Counted from the stretch's first letter, positions 1 through 62,601 are shown. The stretch: 64,000 bases of DNA from Alphaproteobacteria bacterium (GCA_050175015.1 JBFXJJ010000006.1:1-64000), one strand, 5' to 3'. Translations and numbers: made by a program. The notes: generated by a model from the letters alone, not told the origin.

Positions 1-1645
1 TCTTGGCATCGTCTCTGGCATAGCCAACCAGACCGCCAACCGCAGAGCCGCTGCCGTTAACACTGGAAACCGAAAAACTGTCCGAAATCCCTGAGCCGCT
101 GTATAAATAACCTACTAAACCGCCAACATTGCTGCCGCCGTTTACCGTTCCCATAGCGTAACTCGAACTTAATGTCGAGGTGCCATTAACATAGCCTTCC
201 AAACCTCCAACATTAGAATTACCAGTTACTGTTCCTGTGGCGTAACAGGAGGAAACAGAACTTTCACTGTGAGAATACCCAACCAAACCGCCAACATTGT
301 TCTTCGCAGATACGGAAGACGAAGAATAACTATCAGTTATTTTCGATTGAGATCCAACAACTCCAACTAACCCTCCAACATTGTTGCTACCACCTACAAC
401 ATTACCTGTAGAATAGCTGTTCGCGATAGTTGAAGCCTGCGCTACACTAGATACTAATCCTGCTACAGTATCTCCAACAGCAGTAACATTCACACTAGAA
501 GAACTGTTGCTGATTGTTGATTTGCCATCAAGAATAGCAACAAGACCACCTGCAATACTATCTGTATAAGATGAGATAAGCTGCGGCGATGTAACAGTTC
601 CCGATGAAGAACAATTATATATGGACGTTTTAGCATGAGCATAAGCCGCTAAACTTCCAACAACCCTGCCGCTGCTTATATTAGCATTTTTTAATTTTAC
701 ATTTTGGATGCTTGCGCCAATCGTAATATTAAAAAGCCCCGCCCAACAGCCATAACAATTTACGGTTAAATTTTTAATACTATAATTTTTACCATCAAGA
801 AAACCGGTAAAGCCATTAGAAAAACTCGTTCCTATAGGAGTAAAATTAACTCCGCTGCAATCAATATCATTTGCTAGTTGATAATTACCTGAAAGGTTGT
901 TTCCCATATTTTGTAACTGAGTGCAATTAGAAATCATATTCCAAGACATAGTGCTGCAAAAAGCAGGATATGAAACACTTTCTCTAATGCACCACAAACT
1001 ATTAGCAAAATCCCAGCCCTCAAAAGTGGCTTGCTTTTTCATTTCTGCGGTGGTTTTGCCCTCTCCTAAGGCCGAGGTCGTCTGTCCAGATGTTTCGGTG
1101 TCCCAATAACTATGAACAGCTGTAGAATTTGTTGCGCTTCCGACTAATCCCCCCACAGAAAAACTATCTCCTGAAATTGATGCCGAAGAATAACAATTAG
1201 TGATTACTGAATTATTTGCTGTGTTAGCAAAGGCTGCTGCATTTAAGGCTGCACTTATGTTTCCAGAAATATAGCAATTTGAAATATTGGTGTTCAAGAT
1301 TGAAGACGCTATGCTAGCCGCACCGTTTAGCCCTTTAACCGTAATATTGATAAAGGCTATATTTTTTATAGTAGCACCGTCTGCGACATTAAAAAGTCCA
1401 GTTTGCCAATGTATCATATTGTTTATGGTTAAATTAATGATTCTGTGATTTCTACCATCAAGAATACCCGTAAATGGATTAAATTCATCACCTATAGATA
1501 TATAGCCTGCCCCATTGTTCCAACTTGCTGAAGCGCTGCAATCAATATCATTTGCCAGATAATAATTGCCAGCTAGATTACTACTCATAGCTTGCAGTCC
1601 TGCGCAGGTTGTAATGGCTGTTTGAGCATAACCGTATCTAGGATA
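1..1645 (-). CDS. GLUG-motif (VGGLVG repeat) surface protein 1; leaderless body, runs off the window start; missed by the ORF track
   Basis: Manual translation from 1645 gives YPRYGYAQTAITTCAGLQAMSSNLAGNYYLANDIDCSASASWNNGAG...YWDTETSGQTTSALGEGKTTAEMKKQATFEGWDF..., then a second module (ISNCTQLQNMGNNLSGNYQLANDIDCS). The window start reads VGGLVGYARDDAK in the same frame. In-frame TGA at 1651-1649; first in-frame ATG (1588) lies inside the mature domain. Confidence 0.9.
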
Positions 1646-1646
1646 T
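1628..1646. repeat. Switch 1 gene-proximal inverted repeat / putative recombination core site ATAACC-GTATCTA-GGATAT
   Basis: 18/19 identical to the reverse complement of 2182-2200; imperfect dyad around a 7-bp spacer. Confidence 0.9.
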
Positions 1647-1688
1647 AGTCATATTTCTATCATACTACTTTATAAAAATATACTTATA

Positions 1689-1924
1689 AATCATATAGTT
1701 ATAAAAAAAAGCTGTTTGTTAAAAAGAGATAACAATTTAAAAAAATATAAAAATGATGCCTATTAGTTACCCGTACAAACAATATAATAATTAAAATAAT
1801 TATTATTTATCAATATGTTATATGATAAATTTAAAATAATAACAAGAAAATACAATATAATTTAGTTACCCATAAGCTACCCAATTATTTTAACCTAAAA
1901 AAACTATTTATTTTCAATACATTA
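1689..1924. promoter_or_regulatory. Array of 3 IHF-like sites (1689-1701, 1808-1820, 1912-1924) alternating with 2 GGGTARC-like box pairs (1755-1772, 1865-1882)
   Basis: TATCAATATGTTA matches the IHF consensus WATCAANNNNTTR exactly; the other two sites have 1 mismatch; spacing is conserved with switch 2. Confidence 0.7.
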
Positions 1925-2050
1925 TTTAGACTAACAAACGTCAATTTTGCAAGATGATACCAACAACAAAAATGTTAACAAAAAGAAACATTTGCGACAG
2001 CTGCAAATATGGTTTTTTATTTCTTATGATATTAAATAAAAAAAATACGC

Positions 2051-2079
2051 TTGCTTACAGCTTAAAACTGTTGCAAACT
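2051..2079 (+). promoter_or_regulatory. Candidate sigma70 promoter inside switch 1 (TTGCTT-N17-CAAACT)
   Basis: Starts 78 nt before the leader ATG; the switch 2 candidate starts 79 nt before its ATG. Confidence 0.4.
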
Positions 2080-2128
2080 GTAGATAAAAAAAGATTACTA
2101 AAAATATTTTTTACGAAAGGGCAAGAAA

Positions 2129-2212
2129 ATGTTTAATAGAATTAAATTATCATACTTGCTGCTTTTGATATTAACCTTATCATATCCTAGATACAGTTAT
2201 CTTTTATTGTAA
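2129..2212 (+). CDS. Signal-peptide exon of switch 1 (MFNRIKLSYLLLLILTLSYPRYSYLLL*)
   Basis: RBS block GAAAGGGCAAGA at 2115-2126; basic n-region plus hydrophobic h-region; crosses the repeat in the YPRY frame. Confidence 0.85.
   Translation: MFNRIKLSYLLLLILTLSYPRYSYLLL
2182..2200. repeat. Switch 1 distal inverted repeat ATATCC-TAGATAC-AGTTAT
   Basis: Partner of 1628-1646. Confidence 0.9.
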
Positions 2213-6145: not shown

Positions 6146-6871
6146 TTGTCTGAAACTTTACAAGCAAAACGTATTTTAATTGTAGAAGATGATACTTTTG
6201 TTCAAAAAGTACTTAAAGAGTATCTTGATAAAGAAGGATACAATGTAAGCTTGGTTAATAACGGCTCAGAAATGCGCCGCTGTTTTGATTCCAATATTTT
6301 TGATCTTGTAATAATGGATTTAAAGCTGCCTGGTGAAGATGGCATATCTTTAACTCGTTATATTAAAGAAAAATATAACGTGGGCATTATTATTTTAACA
6401 TCAATGAATGAAACCTTTGATAAAGTTGTTGGTCTTGAAGTTGGGGCAGATGATTACATAACAAAACCTTTTGAGGAAAGAGAGCTTCTTGCCAGAATTA
6501 GAAGTGTTATGAGGCGTATCAGCGAAATTAAAGCCTCTGAAAAAAGAGATAACAATAAAATCTATTTTGATGGATGGCATTTAGATATTAAATCTCGAGT
6601 TTTATGGGATCCCAAAGGAAATCAAAAAGATCTTACTGGAAGTGAGTTTACTCTTTTGATTGAGCTTGCAAGCAATCCCCAGAAAGTTATTCGAAGAGAA
6701 AATCTTTTGAAGTCAGTATACAATCGCAATTGGAATCCTGTAGATCGCAGTATAGATGTTCTTGTTACCAGACTACGCCATAAAATTGAAAACGATTGTA
6801 AAAATCCTAAAATTATAAAAACCGTTCGTGGACAAGGATATGTTTTTTCAATTCAAACTCAAATAAAATAA
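6146..6871 (+). CDS. OmpR-family response regulator
   Basis: REC domain (EDD, DLKLPGEDG, GADDYITKPF) plus winged helix (DRSIDVLVTRLR, KTVRGQGY). Confidence 0.95.
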   Translation: MSETLQAKRILIVEDDTFVQKVLKEYLDKEGYNVSLVNNGSEMRRCFDSNIFDLVIMDLKLPGEDGISLTRYIKEKYNVGIIILTSMNETFDKVVGLEVGADDYITKPFEERELLARIRSVMRRISEIKASEKRDNNKIYFDGWHLDIKSRVLWDPKGNQKDLTGSEFTLLIELASNPQKVIRRENLLKSVYNRNWNPVDRSIDVLVTRLRHKIENDCKNPKIIKTVRGQGYVFSIQTQIK

Positions 6872-6987
6872 TTTGAGCAGCATCGGAATTAAAACATATT
6901 ACACAATTAATATACCATATGCGGTTTCATCTGTTACACCACCAAAATTTATAACCATTTTGAATTAACTTACATATAGAGAATGCT

Positions 6988-9501
6988 TTATTTATTAGAT
7001 TCCATATATTTATTAATAAAATACGATACCTCTAAAAAAGCACATTGCAAAAATTTACTGTAAAGTTCCATTCCTTCATAATTAGAGTCCCTTGCAGCTT
7101 TTTCTATTTCATAGGCAACATCTGATAACCTAGATGCTCCAGCGACCAAAGCTCCACTTTTAAGTTTATGAGCATAAAATTCTATGTCCTTATTCATTTT
7201 TGCTTTTATCGAACTAATAGTCATCTCATAACTAGACGTACATGATTCTAAAAAAAGTGATAATATTTCAGGAAGAGCTGAAAAATCATTTTTACAGACA
7301 CTAAGCATACGAAACATATCTAGAGGCGCGCTATTACTAAAAAAATTTTTATTATTATTTTTGCTTACTTCCATTAAAATTTCATCTCGTTCATTATCAA
7401 ACTTATAACAGCATTGATAATTTTTAAATTCAGGCAGCCACTTTCTTGCTATATTTTTCAAGTCTTCTATTCCAAACGGCTTCAAAAGATAATCACTCAT
7501 TCCTGCTTCAATACACTTATTTTTATACTCCAATGAAGCATTAGCGGTAATAGCAACAACTGGCATCTCTTCTTTGTTATTAGTCTTTTCATAAGCCCTA
7601 ATTCTTTTGGTTAATTCAAAACCATCAACATTAGGCATACTGCAATCTGTTAAAACCAAATCATATTTTTTACTGCGGATAGATGCTAAAGCGTCGACGC
7701 CATCACTTGCACATTCTGTAAGAAACCCTATACGCTCCATTTGCCTCATAATTACTAGGCGATTGACAGGATTATCATCGACTACTAAAACTTTTCCGGC
7801 ATCCTCACAAATATTAGTTCTATCATTTTGTTCTTCCGCTTCAGATTTTTTTTCTTGGTTTAGGAACGAAGCCAAAATATCGCTTTGCTTTAGGATATTA
7901 TTAGGCAAAAAATGAACATTGTTAAAATCATCAGAATGATTATTACAAAAAGGCAAAACTATAATTTTCTTATTTTGCAACGTTTGCAAATTAGATATTT
8001 CTTTTAGTTCAGATATGGAAATAATAGGCATATCAAAAAACAAAAGATCAAAATCATTTTCACCTGATATCAGCGTTTGTTTTAAAAGTTCTTTATCGTT
8101 GATATATTTTATATTAGCTCCCCATTTTGCAAGATATTCACACAAGTTTTTTGCTGTTTGACTGCCAAAAATTGATGCTAATATTTTTACTTTTGCAAGA
8201 GGCGGTTTCCTTCTAAGAGGTTTTATTTTTTTAAATGGAATTTCCACAGAAAAAATAGATCCTTTATTTTTTAAACTCGCAAAAGATATTTTCCCCCCCA
8301 TAATTTCAGCTAAATTTTTACAAATAGAAAGCCCAAGGCCGCTACCGCCATAAATTCGAGAAAAGATTTCTTCACTTTGATAAAAAGGCGAAAATATTTT
8401 TTGTTTAGCTTCTTCTGTAATACCTATCCCTGTATCACTAACGGTAAATTTTACATTTACTTTATTCGGCGCACTCTTTAACAAGTCAAGCCTGATATTA
8501 ATTTCGCCAACATTAGTAAATTTAGCAGCGTTAGCAGCAAGATTAGCTATAATCTGCCTTACTCTAAAGGCATCACCTACTAAAATTTCAGGAATACTAG
8601 GGTCAATATATACACTAAACCTTATGGCTTTATAAATAACCTGAGATTGGATTACAGTACCTATATTTTCTATTACTTCGACAAGCGAAAATTCTTGTTC
8701 TTCAATTTTAAGGTGTCCCGCCTCTATTTTTGAGAAATCTAAAATGTCATTAACAAGATTTAAAAATGACTTTGAAGTTTCAGTGATTGTATCTAAAGTT
8801 TTTTTCTGGTCATCTTTAAGCATAGTTTCAGATAAAAGCTCTAGTAAACCAACAATGCTGTTCATCGGAGTTCTAATTTCGTGGCTCATAACTGCTAAAA
8901 AGTTTGATTTTGCGTTATTGGCCTTTAATGCTTCGTCTTTTGCTTTTTCAAGTTGACAGGTTCTTTGTTTGACCTCTTCCTCCAAAGCAATTTTATTTTG
9001 CTCAAGACGGCAAAAGGCATTATAAGAGCGCAGAGATGCTGCAATAACAGCTATTAATCTTGGTTCAGTAAGTTCTGTTTTATATTTATAATCATTAATA
9101 TCATACTGAATTATAACTTCGTTTTCTGGAGCCTCTCCAGGTTGACCAGTCCTTAAGATTATTCTCACTTTATCATTTTTAACTTTATCTCTAACAAATT
9201 TTACAAAGTCTAAACCTGCGTGAGGAGTTTCCAAAATGACATCAAGCAAAATAATAGCTATGTCATTTTCATTTTGAATTATTTTTTGAGCGGCCTTGGT
9301 TGAATACGCATTAAAAATTTTAATTGGTCTATCCATAAAAATGAAATCATTCAAGACCATTTTGGTTACAGCATGAACGGACTCTTCATCATCAACAACG
9401 AGAATATTCCAAGGTTTTTGCATATCACTATTCTTGGATTTTGTGTCCTCAGGAACAAAAACCAATTCATCACTTTCTATATGTCCTAAATTTCTTGGCA
9501 T
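6988..9501 (-). CDS. Cytoplasmic hybrid histidine kinase (REC-HisKA-HATPase-REC-Hpt)
   Basis: SHEIRTPMN H-box, NAAKFT, DTGIG, GSGLGL, C-terminal REC, AHKLKSGA Hpt; no TM segment seen. Confidence 0.92.
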   Translation of the reverse strand: MPRNLGHIESDELVFVPEDTKSKNSDMQKPWNILVVDDEESVHAVTKMVLNDFIFMDRPIKIFNAYSTKAAQKIIQNENDIAIILLDVILETPHAGLDFVKFVRDKVKNDKVRIILRTGQPGEAPENEVIIQYDINDYKYKTELTEPRLIAVIAASLRSYNAFCRLEQNKIALEEEVKQRTCQLEKAKDEALKANNAKSNFLAVMSHEIRTPMNSIVGLLELLSETMLKDDQKKTLDTITETSKSFLNLVNDILDFSKIEAGHLKIEEQEFSLVEVIENIGTVIQSQVIYKAIRFSVYIDPSIPEILVGDAFRVRQIIANLAANAAKFTNVGEINIRLDLLKSAPNKVNVKFTVSDTGIGITEEAKQKIFSPFYQSEEIFSRIYGGSGLGLSICKNLAEIMGGKISFASLKNKGSIFSVEIPFKKIKPLRRKPPLAKVKILASIFGSQTAKNLCEYLAKWGANIKYINDKELLKQTLISGENDFDLLFFDMPIISISELKEISNLQTLQNKKIIVLPFCNNHSDDFNNVHFLPNNILKQSDILASFLNQEKKSEAEEQNDRTNICEDAGKVLVVDDNPVNRLVIMRQMERIGFLTECASDGVDALASIRSKKYDLVLTDCSMPNVDGFELTKRIRAYEKTNNKEEMPVVAITANASLEYKNKCIEAGMSDYLLKPFGIEDLKNIARKWLPEFKNYQCCYKFDNERDEILMEVSKNNNKNFFSNSAPLDMFRMLSVCKNDFSALPEILSLFLESCTSSYEMTISSIKAKMNKDIEFYAHKLKSGALVAGASRLSDVAYEIEKAARDSNYEGMELYSKFLQCAFLEVSYFINKYMESNK

Positions 9502-9644
9502 CGCTCAAAATCTCTCAATTTTTTTACAAAACAAATAATAATATTAATATCTAGGCTTAAATTAAACAATAATATTATTGACATCACTTGAAACAATCTT
9601 TATTTATTTACACAGTATTCAATTAATCATGGGGTAGTACTGTC

Positions 9645-10067
9645 ATGGACACAGAATATCAAAATGAAATAGAAAATGGCAACTTTATTTATTTGACTGT
9701 CGACATCGTTTCAAATTATGTCGCAAAAAACAACGTATCTTATGAAGACTTACCAAAACTGATTACTTTGGTTTATGATGCAATTAAAAGCAACTCTCTA
9801 AATGAAACTTCTAAACCTGAAAAAGAGCCAGCCGTCTCTGTTAAAAGATCTGTGCATCCTGATTTTATTGTCTGTTTAGAAGACGGCAAAAAACTTACTA
9901 TGCTTAAAAGATACTTAAAAACCAATTATAATATGACTCCAGAAGACTATCGTCTTAAATGGGGGCTTCCTCCTGACTATCCTATGGTGGCTCCTAATTA
10001 TGCAGAAAAAAGATCTATGCTCGCCAAAAAAAGCGGCTTAGGAAAATTAACTGGCAGAAAACGTTAA
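9645..10067 (+). CDS. mucR: MucR/Ros transcriptional regulator
   Basis: PAVSVKRSV, CLEDGKK, WGLPPDYPMVAPNYA. Confidence 0.93.
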   Translation: MDTEYQNEIENGNFIYLTVDIVSNYVAKNNVSYEDLPKLITLVYDAIKSNSLNETSKPEKEPAVSVKRSVHPDFIVCLEDGKKLTMLKRYLKTNYNMTPEDYRLKWGLPPDYPMVAPNYAEKRSMLAKKSGLGKLTGRKR

Positions 10068-19963: not shown

Positions 19964-22117
19964 TTAAACACTAGCCCTCTTCACTGAACTAATCACAGGA
20001 AGTGCTCTTAATGCTGCTATAATGCTTGTTAAATGCTTGGCATCTTTAACCTCGATATCTACAATCATTTCATAGATATTAGAAGTTCTATTGGTTATTT
20101 TTAAGTTAGCAATGTTGCCCATATTTTTAGCTATCATATTAGTAAGACTGGCTAAACTTCCAGCTTCGTTCACAATAAGAATTTTTAACCTTCCAATATG
20201 GATTTGGTTTTCAACATTTTCACTATTCCAAGAAACATCAAGCCAGCGTTCAGGTTCCTCAGAAAATTTTTCAAGCGTCGGGCAATCTATAGAGTGAATA
20301 GTTACCCCTTTGCCTGTAGTTACAATGCCGACGATTCTATCTCCTGGCAAAGGATGGCAGCACTTAGCAAAGTTAATCGCCATTCCAGGAATAAGCCCTT
20401 TAATAGGCATATTAGTTTCTGTTTTAGGTTTTTTTACAACCTTTTTCTGACCTACTTTGCGAATAGTTTCTACAACTTTATTCAAGGTAGAGGTTTTGTG
20501 GAGTGGGTAGACTGTTACAAATACATCTTTAGGGTTTAGAATTCCTTCACCAACCATAGCATAAAGATCTTCAATTTCTTCAGCCTTAAAGTTTTTCAAA
20601 ACTTCAGCTATGCCTTTTTCTGAAAAATCGTAACCTTCAGCTTTAAATGTTTTTTGCAAAATTTGCTTGCCGACATCAGTAAATTGGTCTCTCTTCTGAG
20701 CTCTTACAAACTTCCTTATTGCTGCCCTCGCCTTACCCGTAACCACAAAGCATTCCCAGTTAGGCGATGGCGTTTGAGCTTTTGACGTCAAAATTTCTAC
20801 TTGATCACCATTGGTCAGTATTGTCCTCAAAGGACGCATTCTGCCATTAATTTTACAGCCAACACATTTATTGCCGACGGCAGAGTGAACAGCATAAGCA
20901 AAATCAACGGGCGTCGCATCAGCAGGAAGCGTAATTAAATCGCCTTTAGGAGAAAAACAAAAAACTTGGTCTTGAAACATCTCAAGCTTCGTATTTTCTA
21001 AAAATTCTTCAGGGTTAGCGGTTTGATCAAGAATTTCTAACAGTTCTCGCAGCCATCTGAACTGCTTGCCCTCAATATTAGAACCTTGTTTATATTTCCA
21101 GTGAGCAGCAACACCAAACTCAGCAATTTCGTGCATATTTTTTGTTCTTATTTGAACTTCTATACGCTGTTTTTCAGGACCAATAACGCCTGTATGAAGA
21201 GATTGATAGCCATTAGGCTTAGGTGTTGAAATATAATCCGTAAAACGGTTTGGTATCATTGGATATTTGCTATGAATAATACCAAGAGCCTGATAGCACT
21301 CACCAATATTATCAACAATAATACGAAATGCCATAATATCAAAAATTTGCTCAAAATTGGTATTTTGGCGCTGCATCTTACGCCATATAGAATAAGGTGT
21401 TTTTTCGCGCCCATCTATATTTGTTTTTAGTCCGCCCTCTTCCATATCTTTATTGAGTTTATCAATAACATTTGGAACCATATCTCCGCCTAATTCTCTT
21501 AAGAATTTTAAGCGGGCAATGATAGATTCATAAGCATCGGGGTGCAGAACAGAAAAAGCAAGCCCTTCAAGTTCTGTTTTCATCTCCTGCATACCGATTC
21601 TTTCGGCTAAAGGAGCATAAATTTCCATGGTCTCTAAGGCTATTCTTTTTCTTTTTTCAGGCTTTTGAATAAAATGAAGCGTTCTCATATTATGCAGACG
21701 GTCAGCAAGCTTAACCAAAAGAACCCTTATATCCTCTGACATTGCCAAAACAAGCTTACGGAAATTTTCTGCCTGCTTAGCCTGTTCTGATGATAGTTGG
21801 ATTTTTGCAAGTTTGGTGACACCGTCAACTAATTGAGCGATTTCTAGGCCAAACATTTCTTTAATATCGTCGAACGTCGTAGGAGTGTCTTCAACAACAT
21901 CGTGCAAAAGGGCTGTGATAATTGATGCGCAGTCAAGTTTATATTCTGTTAAAATACCAGCGACTTCTACAGGGTGTGAGAAATAGGGATCTCCAGATGC
22001 ACGAAGCTGCGAGCCATGCATTTTCATTGCATAAACATATGCTCGGTTTAACGCATCTTCATCTGCATTAGGATCGTAAGAGCAGACTCTTTCGACCAGT
22101 TCAAACTGCCGCATCAT
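19964..22117 (-). CDS. spoT: Bifunctional (p)ppGpp synthetase/hydrolase
   Basis: HD domain (LLHDVVED), synthetase, TGS and ACT domains. Confidence 0.96.
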   Translation of the reverse strand: MMRQFELVERVCSYDPNADEDALNRAYVYAMKMHGSQLRASGDPYFSHPVEVAGILTEYKLDCASIITALLHDVVEDTPTTFDDIKEMFGLEIAQLVDGVTKLAKIQLSSEQAKQAENFRKLVLAMSEDIRVLLVKLADRLHNMRTLHFIQKPEKRKRIALETMEIYAPLAERIGMQEMKTELEGLAFSVLHPDAYESIIARLKFLRELGGDMVPNVIDKLNKDMEEGGLKTNIDGREKTPYSIWRKMQRQNTNFEQIFDIMAFRIIVDNIGECYQALGIIHSKYPMIPNRFTDYISTPKPNGYQSLHTGVIGPEKQRIEVQIRTKNMHEIAEFGVAAHWKYKQGSNIEGKQFRWLRELLEILDQTANPEEFLENTKLEMFQDQVFCFSPKGDLITLPADATPVDFAYAVHSAVGNKCVGCKINGRMRPLRTILTNGDQVEILTSKAQTPSPNWECFVVTGKARAAIRKFVRAQKRDQFTDVGKQILQKTFKAEGYDFSEKGIAEVLKNFKAEEIEDLYAMVGEGILNPKDVFVTVYPLHKTSTLNKVVETIRKVGQKKVVKKPKTETNMPIKGLIPGMAINFAKCCHPLPGDRIVGIVTTGKGVTIHSIDCPTLEKFSEEPERWLDVSWNSENVENQIHIGRLKILIVNEAGSLASLTNMIAKNMGNIANLKITNRTSNIYEMIVDIEVKDAKHLTSIIAALRALPVISSVKRASV

Positions 22118-25151: not shown

Positions 25152-28100
25152 TTAGTTTTCAAAACGCCCTAAAGCTTTGGAAAGTGTGAGGTAGAGTTTT
25201 CCTGAATCTGAGCTTGAAATAAATGCAATCAAAACATCTGACCTCTCACTTGAACGAGCTCTAGCTATCAAGGTATCAAATTCGGCAATGAATCTTGTTA
25301 TGTATCCTCTAAATTCAGAATCTTCTTCAAACTGCTCTTTTATTGCTGAAATTTGGCTCTTTGTCATCGCTCTATTCAGATGCCTCATAAAGACAGCGTG
25401 ATCTCCCGCATAATACTTTTTCCAAAGCTCATCTTCAGCATCAGGCTCGAATATACGAGTAATATCAACAGCCAAAGACTGCAACCTCTCATTAATAAAG
25501 CTGGCATCTTTTAAGAATTTATCCGTGGTACCTTCAGCCTGCTTTTTCTCAATTTCTGTAAGTTGTAATTCAGCCTTTTTAGAAGCATCAAGTAAATCTT
25601 TAACCTGTTTAGTAAACGCATCACCCAATTTTAATGATGAATTAGTAACTTTTTCACCTGTTTGATAAAGATTTTCAGCATTATTCTTTAATATACTAAG
25701 CAATGAAGAGAGCTTTTCTAATGCAATATCTGCAGCTTCTGATAAAGCTTCAGACTGTCTCAAGAAAATTTCACCAGAATCACGAACATCTGCCGCAATT
25801 CTTTCAGAATTATTAGCAACCTCTCCTATTGTTGAACGTAATTTATCGCCTGAAACCTCAACTTGAGCCGCACTTCTACTTGCCAAGTCCTCGAATTCCC
25901 TGCCAAGAGTACGTAAAACTTCGCCCAAATTGCGTACTTTTTCAGCGGATTCATCTGAAATTTTATTAAAGTCAAGAGAACGATCACGTAGAGATTGCCC
26001 AAATGCTTTAACAGCCTTCTGCGCTTCCTCTGAAATTCTAATAAGTTGATCACTTTGAGCTGATATGGAATCGCCAACGCTTAATATTCTGCTGGAAGCA
26101 TCGTCCGTGGCTTTAACGATATCATCGTGCTTAGCCCCAAAAACAATGCCCACTTCTTGCAATTTATCAAGAGATAAGGCTGTAACTTCAACCAGGCGGT
26201 CAGCTTTGTTATCAAGAATAGAACCCATCTCTTCTGTTTTTCTAATCATTTCTCCAGCTGTCTTGGTTGCTTCTTCACTTTTTTGCTTCAAGCTCTCACT
26301 AACAGCTTCTAAATCAAAACTAATTCTTGAGGAAGATGATAAAAGATCATTGGTATTAGTTTTAAGAACATCGTTGATGGTCTTAATCCTTGTCATGACA
26401 TCATCTGCCGCATCACTCAAATAACGTGCTTGTTGAGATAGCGACGCTTCTCCAAGTCTAGTCTGCGTTGTAACAACATTGGCAATATCAGCAAGCTCTT
26501 CCGTCTGACGTCCCAAAGTATTTTGAATCATATTAATTTGATTATTAACCTTAGATGCGGCTTGATCTAACGTTTCGATATGCTTGCCAATATCATTGCC
26601 AATAGCGTTAGCCTTATGGGCAACATTATCGCCACAAGCAACAAGATCTGTACATTTGGTTTCAACTATACTGGCAGCGGCAACAGCTTTTTGACTTGCT
26701 GAATCTGTTGATTTATTAAACTCTTCAACCGTTTTGTTAAATACGCCAGATAATTCGAACAATCTTTCTTTAGTATTTTGAGCTGAACTATCAAGTTGTT
26801 TAGTCTGTCTTGCTATGACATCGCCAACTTCAGAAAGCTGCTGAATAGATTTTTCTGAAACATTAACAATATCCTTGGTTTGAACTCCGAGACCTTCTTC
26901 AATAATTTCGATACGAGACAATATCTTATCAGCATCTTGGTCCAGCTGTATTGCTTGATTTCTAAGCGACGATGTAATCTTGCTAGTTTGATTCGACAAT
27001 CTCTCTGAGGCTTCCGACAACATAATTTCTTGCCTTTTAAACAAAATATCAAGGCTTTCAGATCTTTCAGAAAGCGATTGTGCGGCATCACTAATTTGAG
27101 TTACTGATTTATCGGCAGTCGTAGACAATATAACCGCTTGAGTTTCCAAAGTTTTAAGTGTCTGCTCGGCTGTAAGCTGAACATTATCGCTAGATCTTTC
27201 CACGGCGTCATTTTGGCGGTTTAAAATTTCTGATATTTTCTCAACCGTATCCATAATACGATTTCTTGTCTTTTCAAGACGTTCATCCTGCTGAGCCATT
27301 TCCTCACTAAATGTTTTGGCAATGCTCAAAGCTTTTTCCGATGTGTTATCAAAATTGCTAGATTCGCGATGCATAAGCTCTGATGCTTTTTCCGTTTTTT
27401 GCTCAACGACAAGAGCCATATCCATAACTTCTTCCATTTGATTTTTTAACGATTTTACAGAAGATGCAACTTCCTGATCAACCATTGCCGAAGCCTTATA
27501 TAGATCTTCTATCTGCTTCTTCAGCTCGCTTTTTACTTCTTCTATACGGGCAAGAGAAGAACTGATATGGCGCTGTTGCTGGCTTAATGCCGCCTCACCT
27601 ATGCGTGACTGGGAAACAACAACAGATGAAATATCAGATAACTCTTCCGTTTGATTGCGTAAAGAAACTCTAATATTTTCAGCCATTCTTGAAACTTCAT
27701 TGGTTGCTTTAGATAGTGATTCTATTTGCTTAGCAGCCAAATCAGAAACAGAGTTAATCTTTCGATTAACATCGTCAGCAACTTTCATAAAATCTTGACA
27801 TCTAGCTTCAACGAAGTCTCCAGCACCACCAGCTTTAGCTGCCGCACCTTCTGCCGCTGCCGCAAGCTGTCCAGCCCTTCGACCAAAAATATCAGCAACT
27901 GATGCAACCTTAGTTTGAGCGTTCTCAGTGGCTTCAGAAATAGCTTCTGACTGCTGCTGAAAAATATTGCTGACATCTCTAAATCTTTCAAACATTGCTT
28001 GAGAAAACGCCTCTAAATCCCTGATTTGTATCGCTATTCCCTCTTCAACAACTCCAACTTTTGCCAAAGATTTTTCAGTCTGCTGTTCTATTATAATTCC

Positions 28101-29126
28101 CTGTTCACGATAACGATTGGTAATCATATCTGATTGCAAATCCATTTTCTCAATGGTATTGACCAAATATTCTTCCTGATTTTTAAAAATAGATTGAACA
28201 TCATGCAGCTTATTAGAAAGAGAAGTAACTATCTTCTCGGCTGTACCGTAAGAGTTATCTATAACATTTGATAATTCTTTAGTTTTACTTTCTAAAATCT
28301 TAGCAATATAATCTACGTGACCTTTAGATTCCTCACTAACGGTAAGCATTGAGGTGTTTTGCTCTCTGAATATAGCTTGAGCTTTTTCTGCATAGTCTTT
28401 CATTTTATCAGCAACGTCATTTAAAGATGACATATGTTCTTTAATTTCATCACCAAATTTAGAGGCTGAAGATAACGCGGTTTCCGTTGCAGAATCCAAA
28501 GTTCCCACCTGCCAACGTAAAACCTCTGCCGTGTCTTTTGCTTTTTCAGAAGCATTATCAGAAGACTTGATTAAATTTTCAACTTGGCCAGCAAGCTCTT
28601 CAACTGAAACCTTAGTTATATTTTCTAATCTATTGGAAAGGTTATTAAATTCCTCTATTCTTAAGCTGACTTTATCTAATACTTCACTAGCCTTATAATC
28701 AGCTTCACTAAAGGCGCCCAGCATCTCATCTAATTGTTTTTTTACTTCAACCGCAGTGGTTTTATCTATCCCTTTGCCTGAAACTAAAGATAAACCCTCA
28801 ATTTGAGACTGCAACTTTTCCATTCTTTCTCCAACTATATCTTTGTTAGAGTATTGACTTATAATAAGCCAAAGAATCAAAACAGGCATTGCTATGCCTG
28901 CAACAAGTCCGCCAAATTCATGCGGCAGCAGCATCATTATATTTTTCCAACCAACATTAAAAATATAGGTTGCAGAAAGCCCTATCCAAAAACCTGTTAC
29001 CACAACACCTATAATATACGATGTTAAAATATGGTTATTTTGCTCGCCAAACGCAGCATCAATAACATCTTTAGAATCAGAATTTTTATAATTTCTTCTG
29101 CTATTTTGCACCTGAATCTCGGACAT
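25152..29126 (-). CDS. Membrane-anchored coiled-coil protein, TipN/GPR(RgsE)-like polar scaffold
   Basis: 2 N-terminal TM segments, ~1100 aa of helical repeats, C-terminal SLAVDITR...SSDSGKLYLTLSKALGR domain. Confidence 0.7.
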   Translation of the reverse strand: MSEIQVQNSRRNYKNSDSKDVIDAAFGEQNNHILTSYIIGVVVTGFWIGLSATYIFNVGWKNIMMLLPHEFGGLVAGIAMPVLILWLIISQYSNKDIVGERMEKLQSQIEGLSLVSGKGIDKTTAVEVKKQLDEMLGAFSEADYKASEVLDKVSLRIEEFNNLSNRLENITKVSVEELAGQVENLIKSSDNASEKAKDTAEVLRWQVGTLDSATETALSSASKFGDEIKEHMSSLNDVADKMKDYAEKAQAIFREQNTSMLTVSEESKGHVDYIAKILESKTKELSNVIDNSYGTAEKIVTSLSNKLHDVQSIFKNQEEYLVNTIEKMDLQSDMITNRYREQGIIIEQQTEKSLAKVGVVEEGIAIQIRDLEAFSQAMFERFRDVSNIFQQQSEAISEATENAQTKVASVADIFGRRAGQLAAAAEGAAAKAGGAGDFVEARCQDFMKVADDVNRKINSVSDLAAKQIESLSKATNEVSRMAENIRVSLRNQTEELSDISSVVVSQSRIGEAALSQQQRHISSSLARIEEVKSELKKQIEDLYKASAMVDQEVASSVKSLKNQMEEVMDMALVVEQKTEKASELMHRESSNFDNTSEKALSIAKTFSEEMAQQDERLEKTRNRIMDTVEKISEILNRQNDAVERSSDNVQLTAEQTLKTLETQAVILSTTADKSVTQISDAAQSLSERSESLDILFKRQEIMLSEASERLSNQTSKITSSLRNQAIQLDQDADKILSRIEIIEEGLGVQTKDIVNVSEKSIQQLSEVGDVIARQTKQLDSSAQNTKERLFELSGVFNKTVEEFNKSTDSASQKAVAAASIVETKCTDLVACGDNVAHKANAIGNDIGKHIETLDQAASKVNNQINMIQNTLGRQTEELADIANVVTTQTRLGEASLSQQARYLSDAADDVMTRIKTINDVLKTNTNDLLSSSSRISFDLEAVSESLKQKSEEATKTAGEMIRKTEEMGSILDNKADRLVEVTALSLDKLQEVGIVFGAKHDDIVKATDDASSRILSVGDSISAQSDQLIRISEEAQKAVKAFGQSLRDRSLDFNKISDESAEKVRNLGEVLRTLGREFEDLASRSAAQVEVSGDKLRSTIGEVANNSERIAADVRDSGEIFLRQSEALSEAADIALEKLSSLLSILKNNAENLYQTGEKVTNSSLKLGDAFTKQVKDLLDASKKAELQLTEIEKKQAEGTTDKFLKDASFINERLQSLAVDITRIFEPDAEDELWKKYYAGDHAVFMRHLNRAMTKSQISAIKEQFEEDSEFRGYITRFIAEFDTLIARARSSERSDVLIAFISSSDSGKLYLTLSKALGRFEN

Positions 29127-29458: not shown

Positions 29459-29532
29459 TGGGGGATAGTTTAATGGTAGAACAGCGGACTCTGACTCCGT
29501 TAGTCTTGGTTCGAATCCAGGTCCCCCAGCCA
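29459..29532 (+). tRNA. tRNA-Gln(CTG)
   Basis: Cloverleaf: TGGGGGA/TCCCCCA acceptor, CT-CTG-AC loop, TTCGAAT, CCA end. Confidence 0.97.
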
Positions 29533-29615
29533 TATTAATGGCTTTATAAATATTTACGCTTGATTATATATTTAAAGCAAAACAGAGCTTTGATTGATTT
29601 TTAGAAAACTATAAT

Positions 29616-30587
29616 ATGGCAAATATCTTTGAACTTTTATTCAAGCCAAAAGAAGCAGACAGCCCAGATAAACTTGGTCTTTACCCTGAAAGAAATCACG
29701 TTCCTGCTCTTCCTGAACGGCGCTATCTTTTTACATCACGTTATCTTGTAGTGATATCTGTAATTAATGTCTGCATTACAATTATGCTTTCAAGTATTTT
29801 GTTTTATATCCTTCCTCAAAGAAGAATTGTCCCAAAACTGTTAGCTATTGATCACAGGTTTGATATTGTGAGCTTAATTGAACCTGATGAAAGACTTGTC
29901 GATTCTTTAGTATTAGCAACAGAAACTTATATCGCTGAATATATTTATTGGCGTCATTCAATAGTTCCCAATGTTAATGAAATGAATCGCAGGTGGGGAC
30001 CAGCCAGCCTTGTTTTTTGGTATTCTAATCTCAAATTATATCAAGAATTTGAACATACTTTTATGCCCAAAGATCTTGCTATGGCTCAAGAAGATGAAAT
30101 AACAAGAGAGGTTGAAATCAGAATGATTTCAAGAAGATATTATGGCATCTGGCGCGCCGAATTTTTAACCCATGATACCAGCCCTAATTTCAAAGGTACT
30201 AGAACTACTATCTGGAGAGCTTTAATTAATGTTGCCTTTATTAAAAGACCTTATCCAAACCAAGATGAAGCTATGAAAAACCCTCTAGACTTTACCGTTA
30301 TGAGCTATTCTTTATCTTCATTAGGAAGTCCAGATGATACTAAAACTGAAGCCGAAAAAGCAGCCGAAGCCGAGGCTGAAGAAGAAGCCGCTGAAGAAGA
30401 TGAATATTCAGAAGAAGATACGGAAACTGAAGATAGTTATAACAGTGAAGAAGAAGATACTTACAATAATACAACCGAGGAAGAAGAACCTCTTCCTGAA
30501 GAACCACCTGCTCCTCCTCAAAACATTAGCGAAGATGGGAAAAGAATGCTTTTCAAAAGCAACCCCGCTAAAGTCGAAAGACGTTAA
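29616..30587 (+). CDS. VirB8/TrbF-like protein with acidic C-terminal tail
   Basis: Single TM segment, periplasmic domain ending NPLDFTVMSY (VirB8 NPxGF.V..Y-like). Confidence 0.65.
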   Translation: MANIFELLFKPKEADSPDKLGLYPERNHVPALPERRYLFTSRYLVVISVINVCITIMLSSILFYILPQRRIVPKLLAIDHRFDIVSLIEPDERLVDSLVLATETYIAEYIYWRHSIVPNVNEMNRRWGPASLVFWYSNLKLYQEFEHTFMPKDLAMAQEDEITREVEIRMISRRYYGIWRAEFLTHDTSPNFKGTRTTIWRALINVAFIKRPYPNQDEAMKNPLDFTVMSYSLSSLGSPDDTKTEAEKAAEAEAEEEAAEEDEYSEEDTETEDSYNSEEEDTYNNTTEEEEPLPEEPPAPPQNISEDGKRMLFKSNPAKVERR

Positions 30588-43718: not shown

Positions 43719-43820
43719 AAAATTGCTAAAGCTGTTATAATTTTGTATAATGCTTGTAATTTGATGATTTTTGTTTAATCTTAAATTTAGTGAAACTAAA
43801 CCAAATAATTGGGTGTGCTA

Positions 43821-44117
43821 ATGGAAAACAATACTATTACTAGAGTTGATATCAGTGAAGCAATATATCACGAAGTAGGTCTTTCCCGTAAAGATACTAT
43901 GGATTTATTGGAAATGATTATTGATGAAATTTCTTCAGCCCTATCAAAAGGTGATGAGGTAAAGATTTCTTCATTTGGAACGTTTGCTGTGCGCCAAAAG
44001 AAACAAAGAATTGGCAGAAACCCAAAAACCAAACAAGAAGTTCCTATTACTCCAAGGAAAGTATTGTCTTTTAGAGCTTCTCAGCTTTTAAAAAAACGTA
44101 TCAACGATAATAAATAA
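43821..44117 (+). CDS. ihfA: Integration host factor alpha subunit
   Basis: VKISSFGTF, GRNPKT; conserved synteny. Confidence 0.93.
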   Translation: MENNTITRVDISEAIYHEVGLSRKDTMDLLEMIIDEISSALSKGDEVKISSFGTFAVRQKKQRIGRNPKTKQEVPITPRKVLSFRASQLLKKRINDNK

Positions 44118-50532: not shown

Positions 50533-50577
50533 GCTTTCCTATGGTTTAGAAACAGCGTACTTAAGCCTTAGGAAAGC
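50533..50577. terminator. Stem-loop after the ggt-like gene
   Basis: GCTTTCCTA...TAGGAAAGC. Confidence 0.55.
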
Positions 50578-50705: not shown

Positions 50706-50777
50706 CTAACTATAACAAGGATAAGCTATAGTTATAATCGAAAACAGCAGACTTAGAAATATATTTTTATTAAACAT
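50706..50777 (-). CDS. Signal-peptide exon of switch 2 (MFNKNIFLSLLFSIITIAYPCYS*)
   Basis: RBS block GAAAGGGCAAGA (50791-50780) is identical to switch 1; 18 codons precede YPCY in the repeat. Confidence 0.85.
   Translation of the reverse strand: MFNKNIFLSLLFSIITIAYPCYS
50707..50723. repeat. Switch 2 distal inverted repeat TAACT-ATAACAA-GGATA
   Basis: 16/17 identical to the reverse complement of 51258-51274. Confidence 0.88.
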
Positions 50778-50827
50778 AGTCTTGCCCTTTCTAAAATAAA
50801 TCCTAATTTTATTTTCTTATTGTCTCT

Positions 50828-50856
50828 ATTCTGCCTTATTTTAAACGGCGTTGCAA
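50828..50856 (-). promoter_or_regulatory. Candidate sigma70 promoter inside switch 2 (TTGCAA-N17-CAGAAT)
   Basis: Starts 79 nt before the leader ATG. Confidence 0.5.
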
Positions 50857-50980
50857 CAATTAAAAAAATGTCATTAAGCATCGTTTAGAGTATTTTTATC
50901 AAAATTAATTTAAAAGTTACATTTTTTTAACATTTAATTGAACTAATTTTTATGCAAAAAAATATCACCAACAGCTAATA

Positions 50981-51215
50981 TAACACCTTGATTATATTAT
51001 ATTTTATTTCAATATTATTTTAGGGTAACATATGGGTAGCAATAATATGCTAATTTTATAGAATATCTTAAAACATTATTAATATAACTTATTGAATTAA
51101 CATACTTTTTATATAAATACTTTTATTTAATGGGTAACATATAGGTAGCTTTATATAAAAAATATATAATAAAAATCTAAAAAATAAAAAATGTAATATT
51201 TATAACATATTGATT
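50981..51215. promoter_or_regulatory. Array of 3 IHF-like sites (50981-50993, 51085-51097, 51203-51215) alternating with 2 GGGTARC-like box pairs (51023-51040, 51132-51149)
   Basis: Two perfect and one 1-mismatch WATCAANNNNTTR on the minus strand; GGGTAAC-ATAT-RGGTAGC twice. Confidence 0.7.
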
Positions 51216-51257
51216 TTAAATATCTTTTTTATATCTTTTTTTCAATACATTTGAATA

Positions 51258-51274
51258 TATCCTTGTTATGGTTA
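51258..51274. repeat. Switch 2 gene-proximal inverted repeat TATCC-TTGTTAT-GGTTA
   Basis: Partner of 50707-50723. Confidence 0.88.
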
Positions 51275-53075
51275 TAGTCAAACAGCCATCACAACCTGCT
51301 CAGAATTACAGGCGATAAACAACAACTTATCAGGTAGTTACTATCTTGCCAACGATATTGATTGCAGTGCGACATCAAGCTGGAACAGCGGTGCTGGTTT
51401 CGTACCTATCGGAAATGCATCGACCCCATTTGCAGGAACTTTTGATGGTAAGAGTTTAACCATAAAAGGACTATACATAAGCAGAGCGGGAATAAACCAA
51501 ATTGGCTTATTTGGGGAAACTAATAGTGCTACAATAAAAGATGTTACGTTGGATAGTATCAACATCACAGGGGGAAGCCGAACCGGCGGTTTAGTTGGAA
51601 GGACTGGAGGTACAACCTCCATAAAAAACTGTGGCACAAAAGGTTATGTTTATGGGCGTGCCGATTACTGCTGTATCGGAGGACTTGTTGGAGGTGCTTA
51701 CGGCAATTTTACTATTGCTAATAGTTATTCTCACGCAGCTGTCAACACTAATGTTTCTTGGTCTGGTGGGCTGGTTGGAGATCACTATACAGGAAAGATA
51801 ATTAATAGCTATGCCACGGGTTCTGTCGTTGGTTGTTCCGCAAGATGCGGGGGACTATCTGGACAACTTGTGAATAGTGGCTCAATAATAAATAGTTTTT
51901 CAACAGGTTCGCTATCAGGCTGTTCATCTTATTGTGGCGGTTTGTTTGGAATATATTATTCTGGGACATCTTCTGGCAATTATTGGGATTATCAAACATC
52001 AGGAATGGCCACCAGTGCAGGAGGAACAGGCAAAACTACAGCCCAAATGCAAACACAAAGCACTTTTGCAGGCTGGGATTTTGAAAATGATTGGTGTATG
52101 CCGGAAGGTGATTATCCACGGTTAAAATTTGAAGATGCTTGTTCCTTGCCAACTTGTACAGGTTGTGCGGTTTTAAGCGGCAGAGAATGTGTTGCTGGCG
52201 ACAGTTGTTCAGGCGAACACCCAAATTGTGTTGTAACTGATAATGATGGCATTTGTGAATGTTCAGCATCTAGCTGTAATGCGGGACGCAGCTGCTCTAC
52301 TGCGGGAATATGCTCTGACTGTGATAATTCTGAGGGGTGTGGCTCTTGTACTTGTGGAACCTCACAAAAGCCGACAGGAACAGGCGCCTGTATAAATGAC
52401 AGCTCGTGCTGTGTTGGTGAATGCAATATGGCAACTGGTGCTAATTTTTGCAGTTACAGTGATGACTTATGCTCCTCAGGAATAGCGTGCAACCGTTCAA
52501 CATTATCTTGCTGTGCTTCCTCCCTTCCTTATTGGCGAAGCAGCGACTGCAAACCTTGTGCCGCCACTAGTGGTTTGTCTGGAACGTGCCAAACTAAGGG
52601 CATGATGTGCAACTCGAATTATGATTGCGTAAGCTGTTTGGCTAATATGCAATGCACCTGTGATGATGGCTTTGTTTCTGATGGTGCTGGCGGCTGTATC
52701 GAGCCTTTATGCTACACCGACAGTGAATGCGGAACCGATAAATGTATCAATGCTGGAGACTACGACGCTTTCTGCTCAAACTGCAGTTCTATCAATAAGG
52801 TCTGGGTTTCAGGATCTTGCGAAAGCTGTCCAAGTGGTTCGACGTATCATAATGGTATTTGTTTATGCTCTGATGGCAAAATGTGGAATTCTGCAAGCAA
52901 TACCTGCTCTAAAAAAAGCGTAATTTCAAGCCACGGGGTTATTGATACCAAGAGTAAGGCAACCGCCATAACACCAGAGAGCCGCTATGACCGCATTAAG
53001 CGCAAAATGAATCGCATCACGAACAGCGCCTATGCAGGAGTAGCTGATAAAGAAGAATTGGAAGAATTAGAATAA
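51258..53075 (+). CDS. GLUG-motif plus cysteine-rich surface protein 2; leaderless body
   Basis: Frame is open 97 codons upstream of the tracked TTG: YPCYGYSQTAITTCSELQAINNNLSGSYYLANDIDCSATSSWNSGAG...; in-frame TGA at 51252; GGLVG repeats followed by a Cys-rich region. Confidence 0.9.
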   Translation, partial: YPCYGYSQTAITTCSELQAINNNLSGSYYLANDIDCSATSSWNSGAGFVPIGNASTPFAGTFDGKSLTIKGLYISRAGINQIGLFGETNSATIKDVTLDSINITGGSRTGGLVGRTGGTTSIKNCGTKGYVYGRADYCCIGGLVGGAYGNFTIANSYSHAAVNTNVSWSGGLVGDHYTGKIINSYATGSVVGCSARCGGLSGQLVNSGSIINSFSTGSLSGCSSYCGGLFGIYYSGTSSGNYWDYQTSGMATSAGGTGKTTAQMQTQSTFAGWDFENDWCMPEGDYPRLKFEDACSLPTCTGCAVLSGRECVAGDSCSGEHPNCVVTDNDGICECSASSCNAGRSCSTAGICSDCDNSEGCGSCTCGTSQKPTGTGACINDSSCCVGECNMATGANFCSYSDDLCSSGIACNRSTLSCCASSLPYWRSSDCKPCAATSGLSGTCQTKGMMCNSNYDCVSCLANMQCTCDDGFVSDGAGGCIEPLCYTDSECGTDKCINAGDYDAFCSNCSSINKVWVSGSCESCPSGSTYHNGICLCSDGKMWNSASNTCSKKSVISSHGVIDTKSKATAITPESRYDRIKRKMNRITNSAYAGVADKEELEELE

Positions 53076-61580: not shown

Positions 61581-61681
61581 CTTTTTCTCTCTAAAATTTT
61601 GTTTTAGATTTCGTCTTTATTTTAAACTAATTTTTTATAGCAAATATGAAAAATAAATAAAATAATTATTCTCTTTAAATA

Positions 61682-61713
61682 ATTACTGCGCAGTTTTAAG
61701 GCTGCGCAGTAAT
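61682..61713 (-). terminator. Stem-loop between the redoxin genes
   Basis: ATTACTGCGCAG...CTGCGCAGTAAT. Confidence 0.65.
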
Positions 61714-61740
61714 CGTATAAAAGCTATTTAAATTTAAATA

Positions 61741-62601
61741 TTATTCAAGTCCAGCTTTAACAGCAGGATTGGTACAGCCATTATCAAAGCATTCTTGGAT
61801 TTTAGATGTAATACTGCCTTTCATTGAATCAGCATAGCCAAAGATAGGGCTGTTATCGCCAATGAAAAAGGCTGGAACACCTCTTGGATCAACACCATAA
61901 GCTGTTGCAAGTTTGCCAAACATTTTGATGCCTTCTTGGTCTTTCCAAGTTTCATAAGCACGAACATCTAAATCTGGGTATTGCTTTTTTAATTCCTCTA
62001 AGAAAGGTTTTGCTTGAGCGCAGTGAGGACAACCATCACCCCAGAAAAAGTACATAACAATTTTTTCTTTTGTGAAAAGTTTTTTCACATAAGATTTTGC
62101 ACTATCAAAAAAAGATCCCTCTTTCTTATCTTCATCTTTTACAGCTTTATAATCATCAGATACTTTAGAAGCATATGAAGAGCCATCACTTTCAAACCCT
62201 TTTGATGCAACTTTATCTAAAGGATTAACACAACCGTCTTTAATGCAAGTTTCAACTTTTTCAATAAAAGCAGGCTGCATTTTTTCGTTATAGCCAAATC
62301 CTGGAATAGAATCACCAATAAAGAATGCAGGAACACCTCTTGCTTCTGCATTATATGCTTTTGCTACCTCTTGGAATAACTGAGCGTTCTGTCTATTCTT
62401 CCAAGTTTCAAAATAATGAACTTTAAGTTCTGGATATTTCTCTTCAAGCTCTTTTACAAAAGGTTTGGCTTCAGCACAATGAGGACAGCCATCACCCCAG
62501 AAAAATAGCAGGTGAGTTTCGTGTTTTTCTTGAGCATAAGAATTAGAAGCAAAGACAATAGAAACCATTGCCAATACTACGCTTGCTAAGATTTTTTTCA
62601 T
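61741..62601 (-). CDS. Exported tandem CPHC redoxin protein
   Basis: FFWGDGCPHC x2; signal peptide. Confidence 0.8.
   Translation of the reverse strand: MKKILASVVLAMVSIVFASNSYAQEKHETHLLFFWGDGCPHCAEAKPFVKELEEKYPELKVHYFETWKNRQNAQLFQEVAKAYNAEARGVPAFFIGDSIPGFGYNEKMQPAFIEKVETCIKDGCVNPLDKVASKGFESDGSSYASKVSDDYKAVKDEDKKEGSFFDSAKSYVKKLFTKEKIVMYFFWGDGCPHCAQAKPFLEELKKQYPDLDVRAYETWKDQEGIKMFGKLATAYGVDPRGVPAFFIGDNSPIFGYADSMKGSITSKIQECFDNGCTNPAVKAGLE

Follow-up and report, generated by a model that had tools for sequence, protein, structure and literature searches.

What purpose is served by the row of alternating IHF-like sites and paired GGGTARC boxes that precedes two surface-protein genes of an alphaproteobacterium? 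This question was addressed in a window of 64,000 nucleotides (GCA_050175015.1 JBFXJJ010000006.1:1-64000), which is A+T-rich (35% G+C) and carries genes of alphaproteobacterial type, including those for MipZ, a MucR/Ros regulator, ClpS/ClpA, a Bpt-type transferase, VirB8 and a flagellar hook protein. The two arrays belong to switch 1 (S1) and switch 2 (S2), which are located about 49 kb apart, each directly upstream of a paralogous GLUG gene, and whose interiors have a G+C content of only 19–21% (Table 1). Several other features of the window are recorded here for completeness. The VirB8-like gene (29459-30587; 323 aa) immediately follows a tRNA-Gln gene and is solitary, the window containing no further type IV secretion genes in its vicinity. 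A 1324-aa ORF (25152-29126, minus strand) matches no Pfam or NCBIfam family above threshold and shows weak coiled-coil-like matches to SMC and ZorA. Two adjoining ORFs (59544-62601, minus strand) contain repeated thioredoxin/glutaredoxin-like and TraF-like segments, and a HydE-like radical-SAM maturase is represented by its C-terminal part at the window edge (63536-63997, minus strand; E 8e-35, below the equivalog cut-off).

Table 1. Coordinates of the switches, their elements and candidate trans-acting genes in the window.
Feature	Position	Strand	Description
S1 array (switch 1)	1689-1924		inside low-G+C segment bounded by inverted repeats
S2 array (switch 2)	50981-51215		counterpart of S1 array, likewise between inverted repeats
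S1 inverted repeat arms	1628-1662 / 2166-2200		
S2 inverted repeat arms	50707-50723 / 51258-51274		
S1 proximal (array-side, gene-proximal) core	1628..1646		interior outward ATATCC TAGATAC GGTTAT; in gene-body frame
S1 distal (promoter-side) core	2182..2200		interior outward ATATCC TAGATAC AGTTAT
S2 proximal (array-side, gene-proximal) core	51257..51275		interior outward ATATCC TTGTTAT GGTTAT
S2 distal (promoter-side) core	50706..50724		interior outward TTATCC TTGTTAT AGTTAG
S1 7-bp spacers	1634-1640 / 2188-2194		
S2 7-bp spacers	50712-50718 / 51263-51269		
S1 target gene body	2..1648	-	GLUG / Peptidase_M26_N surface-protein type; continues past window edge
S2 target gene body	51255..53075	+	GLUG protein (GLUG / Peptidase_M26_N type)
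S1 leader	2115..2212	+	ribosome-binding site GAAAGGGCAAGA, ATG 2129, signal peptide MFNRIKLSYLLLLILTLSYPRY
S2 leader	50706..50791	-	conserved ribosome-binding site GAAAGGGCAAGA, ATG 50777, signal peptide MFNKNIFLSLLFSIITIAYPCY
S1 IHF-a	1689..1702	+	AATCATATAGTTAT; 1 mismatch to strict consensus; aligns with S2 51202-51215
S1 box pair 1	1755..1772	-	GGGTAAC taat AGGCATC; 2 mismatches, second box degenerate
S1 IHF-b	1808..1821	+	TATCAATATGTTAT; strict match
S1 box pair 2	1865..1882	-	GGGTAGC ttat GGGTAAC; 0 mismatches
S1 IHF-c	1912..1925	+	TTTCAATACATTAT; 1 mismatch; least conserved of the three, 8/14 columns identical
S1 island 3	1972..1989	+	conserved 18 bp, 7+4+7 look, orientation opposite to boxes
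S1 putative promoter	2051..2079	+	TTGCTT, 17-bp spacer, CAAACT
S2 IHF-a	51202..51215	-	strict match
S2 box pair 1	51132..51149	+	GGGTAAC atat AGGTAGC; 0 mismatches
S2 IHF-b	51084..51097	-	1 mismatch
S2 box pair 2	51023..51040	+	GGGTAAC atat GGGTAGC; 0 mismatches
S2 IHF-c	50980..50993	-	strict match
S2 island 3	50916..50933	-	ATGTTAA aaaa ATGTAAC
S2 putative promoter	50828..50856	-	TTGCAA, 17-bp spacer, CAGAAT
OmpR/PhoB-family response regulator	6146..6871	+	best matches TorR, ArcA, OmpR, all below equivalog cut-offs
Tripartite hybrid kinase (HisKA-HATPase-REC-Hpt)	6988-9501		adjoins response regulator
ihfA (IHF alpha subunit)	43809..44117	+	NCBIfam IHF alpha 134.9 bits vs cut-off 111

Judged by their sequence, S1 and S2 appear to be invertible ON/OFF cassettes for the adjacent surface-protein genes. 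Each cassette is about 552 bp long (554 bp in S1 and 551 bp in S2 from core centre to core centre) and contains a ribosome-binding site, a start codon and a signal peptide but no long ORF. As in fimS, short inverted repeats flank a segment with expression signals of the adjacent gene, here together with its start codon and signal peptide. In the assembly both cassettes are in the OFF orientation, with their leaders pointing away from the genes. The initial annotation had assigned the array to the interior of a switch; our analysis adds that this switch would move a start codon and a signal peptide besides a promoter.

The reading frames on either side of the repeats are consistent with such a function. 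In S1 the gene frame is open from the proximal core onward, and 20 codons without a start precede the first in-frame start (ATG 1588); in S2 98 such codons precede the first in-frame start (TTG 51549). Both leaders run through the distal core and repeat and meet a stop codon shortly past it. The distal repeat encodes YPRY (S1) or YPCY (S2) in the leader, and the proximal core at the head of the gene body encodes YPRYGY or YPCYGY, respectively. Because the leader frame through the distal repeat matches the gene frame at the proximal repeat, inversion would join leader and gene in frame. In relatives with ordinary signal peptides (P0005, P0028, P0031) the sequence ASA is followed by QTMITTC, and from this order we infer that the crossover site lies within the stretch of the leader expected to be removed by cleavage. 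With start codon and signal peptide residing on the flipping part, OFF-state genes would be called as truncated and apparently non-secreted proteins. An example is the S2 gene, whose database form is solely a truncated protein of 508 aa (P0021). The design of the cassette therefore bears on genome annotation, in which OFF-state genes of this type are start-less.

The recombination cores have the layout ATATCC-N7-GGTTAT, that is, two inverted half-sites of 6 bp around a 7-bp spacer (6+7+6, 19 bp). The spacer is the same in both cores of a switch and differs between S1 and S2 at three of seven positions. Tyrosine recombinases require identity of the overlap between partner sites, and as in cores of the lambda Int type the inverted half-sites here surround an overlap that is identical between partners. 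Spacer identity within each switch, combined with the inverted half-sites, thus points to a tyrosine-recombinase layout, and the difference between the spacers would keep S1 and S2 from recombining with each other. The outer half-sites are not the same at the two ends, reading GGTTAT on the gene side and AGTTAT (S1) or AGTTAG (S2) on the far side. A MITE or transposon-end origin of the repeats was ruled out by the in-frame continuation of leader and gene across them; it is also contradicted by spacers that vary from switch to switch alongside conserved half-sites.

No tyrosine or serine recombinase was found in the window (52 of 76 ORFs covered at E≤1e-5, and nine unassigned ORFs at E≤1), and none of the window ORFs scanned matched the Resolvase family, as a serine invertase of the Hin/Gin type would. 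Where a fimS-type system would have its recombinase genes, S1 has a radical-SAM/KamA-like gene as its neighbour, and S2 is accompanied by genes for a gamma-glutamyltranspeptidase and TrkH. A 16-bp stem with 88% complementarity (50533-50577) immediately follows the gamma-glutamyltranspeptidase-like gene, upstream of S2, and may be a terminator that shields S2 from read-through, though it has no T-rich tail.

Relatives of the switches were sought at the DNA and protein levels. With the two gene N-termini, 71 contig loci were found at up to 43% protein identity, none of them belonging to the window's own genome, and a box pair was present in none of the 71; in the best of them (L001) the domain lies in the middle of a long ORF and there is no switch. 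By blastn S2 gave no match in plasmid and phage collections. Proteins corresponding to the ON state (signal peptide plus YPxxGY) were found neither among the best 120 of 3,867 matches nor in sets of 14 and 15 proteins. Two of these best 120 of 3,867 matches have YPxxGY at the N-terminus and no signal peptide (P0007 and P0009, with the junctions YPNNGY and YPKYGY), and the source label of the first of them is MAG Alphaproteobacteria. Proteins P0011, P0027 and P0127 start at an internal methionine, as gene calls made in the OFF state would. These sequences suggest that the same type of switch may exist in other genomes.

All four box pairs are 18 bp long and consist of direct repeats in a 7+4+7 arrangement, with the 11-bp period given in the initial annotation. 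The pattern GGGTARC-N4-RGGTARC, with up to two mismatches allowed, occurs five times in the window versus 0.61 expected, a number reached in none of 100 shuffles. Four of these matches are the S1 and S2 pairs, the fifth (20721-20738) is located inside a RelA/SpoT coding region, and upstream of any other gene in the 64-kb window no further pair was found. Single exact boxes are not enriched window-wide (eight versus 4.61 expected; 7 of 100 shuffles reach eight); six of the eight lie inside the arrays, all on the inner side of one core, and two are far off in coding regions. Between S1 and S2, pair 1 is identical at 14 and pair 2 at 15 of 18 columns. The box sequence is unlike the core half-sites ATATCC and RGTTAT. 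An iteron-type replication origin was ruled out on context, as the two copies each lie directly upstream of a paralogous gene.

Six IHF-like sites of the form WWTCAWNNNRTTAT are present at the limits given in the initial annotation. Three of them are strict matches to WATCAANNNNTTR, which we take to be the strict IHF consensus; 0.25 strict matches are expected in the two interiors, and one of 300 shuffles reaches three. Matches with at most one mismatch are not enriched by count (seven versus 6.4 expected; 146 of 300 shuffles reach seven), and six of these seven are aligned, co-oriented array sites. What makes the six sites convincing is their homologous position in both switches, their single orientation and the islands of identity that they form. 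GTTAT is present in five of the six and is shared with the outer core half-site RGTTAT; hence the IHF-like sites may be extra recombinase half-sites instead of IHF sites. The gene ihfA had been reported for this window and is indeed encoded there, with a score above the family cut-off, and its product is a candidate for acting in trans at the IHF-like sites.

In both switches the elements follow each other, from the gene-proximal core inward, in the order IHF, box pair, IHF, box pair, IHF, and all distances previously listed for them were reproduced to within 1 bp. For S1 and S2, respectively, these distances are 109 and 108 bp from the core to the first pair, 110 and 109 bp from pair to pair, 54 and 54 bp from the first IHF site to the pair, 36 and 35 bp from the pair to the middle IHF site, and 30 and 30 bp from the second pair to the last IHF site. 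Expressed as offsets from the centre of the array-side core, the positions are +52/+51 (IHF-a), +118/+117 (pair 1), +171/+169 (IHF-b), +228/+226 (pair 2) and +275/+273 (IHF-c). Over approximately 550 bp the offsets of the elements thus agree within 1–2 bp between S1 and S2, and that of the putative promoter within 4 bp.

This regular spacing is kept in DNA that has otherwise diverged. The motif columns of S1 and S2 are identical at 59 of 78 positions (76%), as compared with 45% for the other 203 array columns and a compositional expectation of 40%, which bears out the earlier remark that the DNA between the motifs is diverged. Only 3 of 20,000 random block placements reached 59 identical positions, in a test based on two array copies and on motif limits that were set after the alignment was seen. 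The same two features, two clearly homologous copies only and motifs defined on the aligned sequences, could be taken to mean that the motifs are devoid of function and represent leftover similarity from duplication of a switch, their spacing being kept for want of indels. We consider this highly improbable given the difference between motif and intermotif columns and the rarity of equally good placements. Moreover, G-rich boxes persist in DNA of such low G+C content, and the orientation of the six IHF-like sites and of the four pairs is preserved throughout. Given the general expectation for the rate of indels, the few length changes in DNA with substitutions near saturation suggest that the spacing itself is under selection.

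The array is continued by a further element that is absent from the initial annotation. Island 3 is located about 107 bp beyond pair 2, by which it extends the rhythm of about 110 bp, and with 11 of 12 positions identical it is better conserved than any other block of the interior. It was rejected as a third box pair because it scores -5.4 with the box matrix versus 19–25 for the four pairs. An IHF-like site is found roughly midway in the interval between core and pair 1 and in that between pair 1 and pair 2; one is also located between pair 2 and island 3. At a conserved position 60–62 bp beyond island 3, each switch has a putative promoter. A sigma-54 promoter with an IHF-assisted enhancer was rejected, as inspection by eye showed no GG/GC -24/-12 pair upstream of either start codon. 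Control by CcrM methylation was likewise discarded, with not a single GANTC in S1 or S2.

The position of the putative promoter raises the question of whether the array is simply its upstream regulatory region and has no role in recombination. Each pair would then bind a head-to-tail dimer of an OmpR/PhoB-family protein, for instance the product of the response regulator gene at 6146-6871, and IHF bends would loop the dimers, located at about -200 and -320, to the promoter so that a signal sets expression in the ON state. The geometry of the pairs is indeed that of the ArcA box, which comprises 18 bp with direct repeats 11 bp apart from centre to centre and often occurs in multiple copies (PMC3798270). 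All elements of the array are located upstream of the putative promoter and keep a fixed register to it, and the window encodes an OmpR-family regulator along with a tripartite hybrid kinase. These two genes form a cluster with a MucR/Ros regulator gene about 4 kb from S1 (6146-10067). The response regulator is a candidate binder of the direct-repeat boxes, to which it is linked by site geometry only.

Several features are difficult to reconcile with a purely regulatory function. The boxes are located roughly 170–300 bp upstream of the putative -35 element, with none near the promoter, and IHF-a lies past the last box, beside the core, where it would be useless to a promoter loop. Elsewhere in the window the box-pair pattern is matched only within a coding region. 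The promoter itself is putative; both candidates are weak, and neither of them passed the thresholds of the promoter scan. We therefore regard a regulatory region without a recombination role as possible but rather unlikely.

Instead, we favour the idea that the array is a recombination-accessory scaffold, that is, the cis-acting accessory arm of the invertible cassette, and give it an even chance of being correct. This preference is based on the shortness of the half-sites, on the presence of an IHF-like site in each of the intervals from core to pair 1, from pair 1 to pair 2 and from pair 2 to island 3, and on the precedents set by lambda attP and fimS. It is further based on IHF-a, which seen from the promoter lies beyond all boxes and keeps a fixed distance of 52 (S1) or 51 bp (S2) from the core. 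The initial annotation had proposed arm-type sites and IHF bends that form an intasome-like complex able to bias direction. The architecture does fit a recombination-accessory array, whereas the array by itself cannot set direction: since it is contained wholly within the segment, its inner half-site would not change between ON and OFF, and the array thus cannot alone distinguish the two states. A bias in direction could originate only at the outer half-sites, as these differ and change beside the array. The outer half-site next to the array is GGTTAT in the OFF state and would be AGTTAT (S1) or AGTTAG (S2) in the ON state.

Based on this architecture we propose that a tyrosine recombinase encoded outside the window would exchange strands in the 7-bp spacers. 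Half-sites of 6 bp would be too short for the enzyme to be held firmly, hence the phased row of IHF-a, pair 1, IHF-b, pair 2 and IHF-c. With every IHF bend, some 110–125 bp of DNA would double back on itself, and both box pairs would thereby be stacked beside the core; in total about 290 bp would be folded so that the protein bound to the boxes meets the weak cores. The bends would also shorten the 550-bp loop and let the two cores meet. The boxes might be bound by the arm-binding N-terminal domains of four lambda-Int-like recombinase protomers or by two dimers of an accessory protein. As the arm keeps its inner half-site, ON-to-OFF and OFF-to-ON inversion would be reactions of the same type, and no excisionase-like factor would be needed.

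Two more specific versions of this model differ in the protein that occupies the boxes, whose number fits the four protomers of a recombinase tetramer and equally two dimers of a direct-repeat-binding protein. According to the first, which we put forward tentatively and consider unlikely, a heterobivalent integrase of the lambda Int type acting on a one-armed att site runs a chromosomal phase-variation switch. There would be four arm-type boxes for as many protomers in the tetramer, and three IHF-induced U-turns would compact the roughly 290 bp. The weak 6+7+6 core would be accommodated in the part of the signal peptide that is cleaved off, the reaction would be symmetric without a directionality factor, and the 7-bp spacers, being specific to each switch, would prevent cross-recombination among the many switches of a genome.

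According to the second, which is a sub-case of the scaffold, the boxes are not arm-type sites and are bound by a response regulator or another direct-repeat protein that assists the recombinase or biases its action, whereby the ratio of ON to OFF would be coupled to a signal. The geometry of the boxes is that of response-regulator sites (PMC3798270), and there are precedents for such a role: ArcA together with PepA is an accessory factor of XerCD at psi (bioRxiv 10.64898/2026.02.23.706985, in part), and RstA, a member of the ArcA family of regulators that binds a box inside fimS, brings about an OFF-to-ON shift at unchanged fimB and fimE mRNA levels (PMC13276309, in part). However, the four boxes would also suit the four protomers of a recombinase tetramer. 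In addition, inversion would change neither the core beside which the array lies nor the side on which it lies, and a bound factor would therefore meet near-identical ON and OFF complexes. We thus judge this second version to be distinctly unlikely.

Descriptions of invertible switches usually comprise two short repeats and a recombinase. To our knowledge, little is known outside fimS about the accessory DNA that governs whether and how often switches flip. In S1 and S2 this accessory layer is unusually legible, as it consists of five to six short elements in randomised, very A+T-rich DNA with a spacing that is kept to about 1 bp. A phased array of such legibility makes it practical to test directly for an intasome-like assembly on an inversion substrate. 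Should the boxes be arm-type sites, the arrays would connect phase variation with intasomes of the integrase kind; should they be bound by a response regulator, the arrays would represent a compact form of phase variation coupled to a signal, in a lineage of uncultured alphaproteobacteria. In a limited search of the literature we found no description of a strictly phased, one-armed array of IHF sites and direct repeats in such a cassette.

The principle of the cassette itself is not new, as is evident from inversions in mollicutes and from catalogued partial intergenic invertons. A further study of mollicute surface antigens reportedly describes site-specific inversions of the same sort. In Ureaplasma (mba/UU172) and Mycoplasma (vpma, vsa), inversion at repeats in or close to the 5' coding region links an expression site providing the signal peptide to a silent surface-protein gene (PMC3047005, in part). 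There, one expression site serves several genes, and the sections of that paper on which we draw describe no phased array, whereas in the window studied here each gene has a cassette of its own. Like S1 and S2, partial intergenic invertons have one repeat in coding sequence and the other outside (bioRxiv 10.1101/2023.03.11.532203, in part). The survey, in the portion drawn on here, treats most of these cases as shufflon-like domain swaps, and its main text contains neither 'start codon' nor 'signal peptide' a single time.

With fimS of E. coli (FimB/FimE, IHF, Lrp), S1 and S2 share the organization as an ON/OFF cassette in front of a gene for a surface structure, and the location of architectural-protein sites, which are predicted in our case, inside or beside the segment; RstA also binds inside fimS (PMC13276309, in part). 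IHF is essential for inversion of fimS, which has an IHF site next to IRL and another within the switch, where Lrp sites are found too (bioRxiv 10.1101/2022.09.20.508701, in part). In contrast to these Lrp sites, three IHF-like sites alternate strictly with paired direct repeats in each of our arrays. The two systems also differ in that fimS comprises 314 bp with 9-bp repeats and moves a promoter only, whereas the cassettes described here span about 552 bp, have 19-bp cores in coding sequence, would move a start codon and a signal peptide, and are not adjacent to recombinase genes.

The Xer sites cer and psi, at which PepA acts with ArgR or ArcA, resemble S1 and S2 in having accessory DNA on one side of a tyrosine-recombinase core, and at psi one of the accessory proteins is a response regulator of the OmpR/PhoB family (bioRxiv 10.64898/2026.02.23.706985, in part). 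The tandem-site geometry of that family, with repeats spaced by 10–11 bp, is also seen in the box pairs, which span 18 bp with repeats 11 bp apart (PMC3798270). Unlike the cores of S1 and S2, which are inverted and served by one array, the Xer sites are direct repeats, and the accessory DNA of both partners interwraps and thereby enforces resolution.

P2, HP1 and L5 are grouped with the intasomes of the lambda attP type, and the arrays would work in a manner resembling these intasomes or fimS. Likenesses are the inverted half-sites around a 7-bp overlap common to both partners, the boxes that are unlike the core half-sites and located 100–250 bp away from them, and the location, between boxes and core, of IHF sites, which are predicted in our case. 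In lambda attP, arm sites and IHF bends cooperate with an Int tetramer on 240 bp of DNA, and the accessory region described here is of comparable length, with about 290 bp (PMC4111918, in part). Lambda attP, however, has two arms, P and P', and serves integration, whereas in S1 and S2 only one of the two inverted cores has an arm, a single one located to its inner side, and the reaction would be inversion within the chromosome. The arm would stay with its core throughout, so that neither an attL/attR asymmetry nor a need for Xis would arise.
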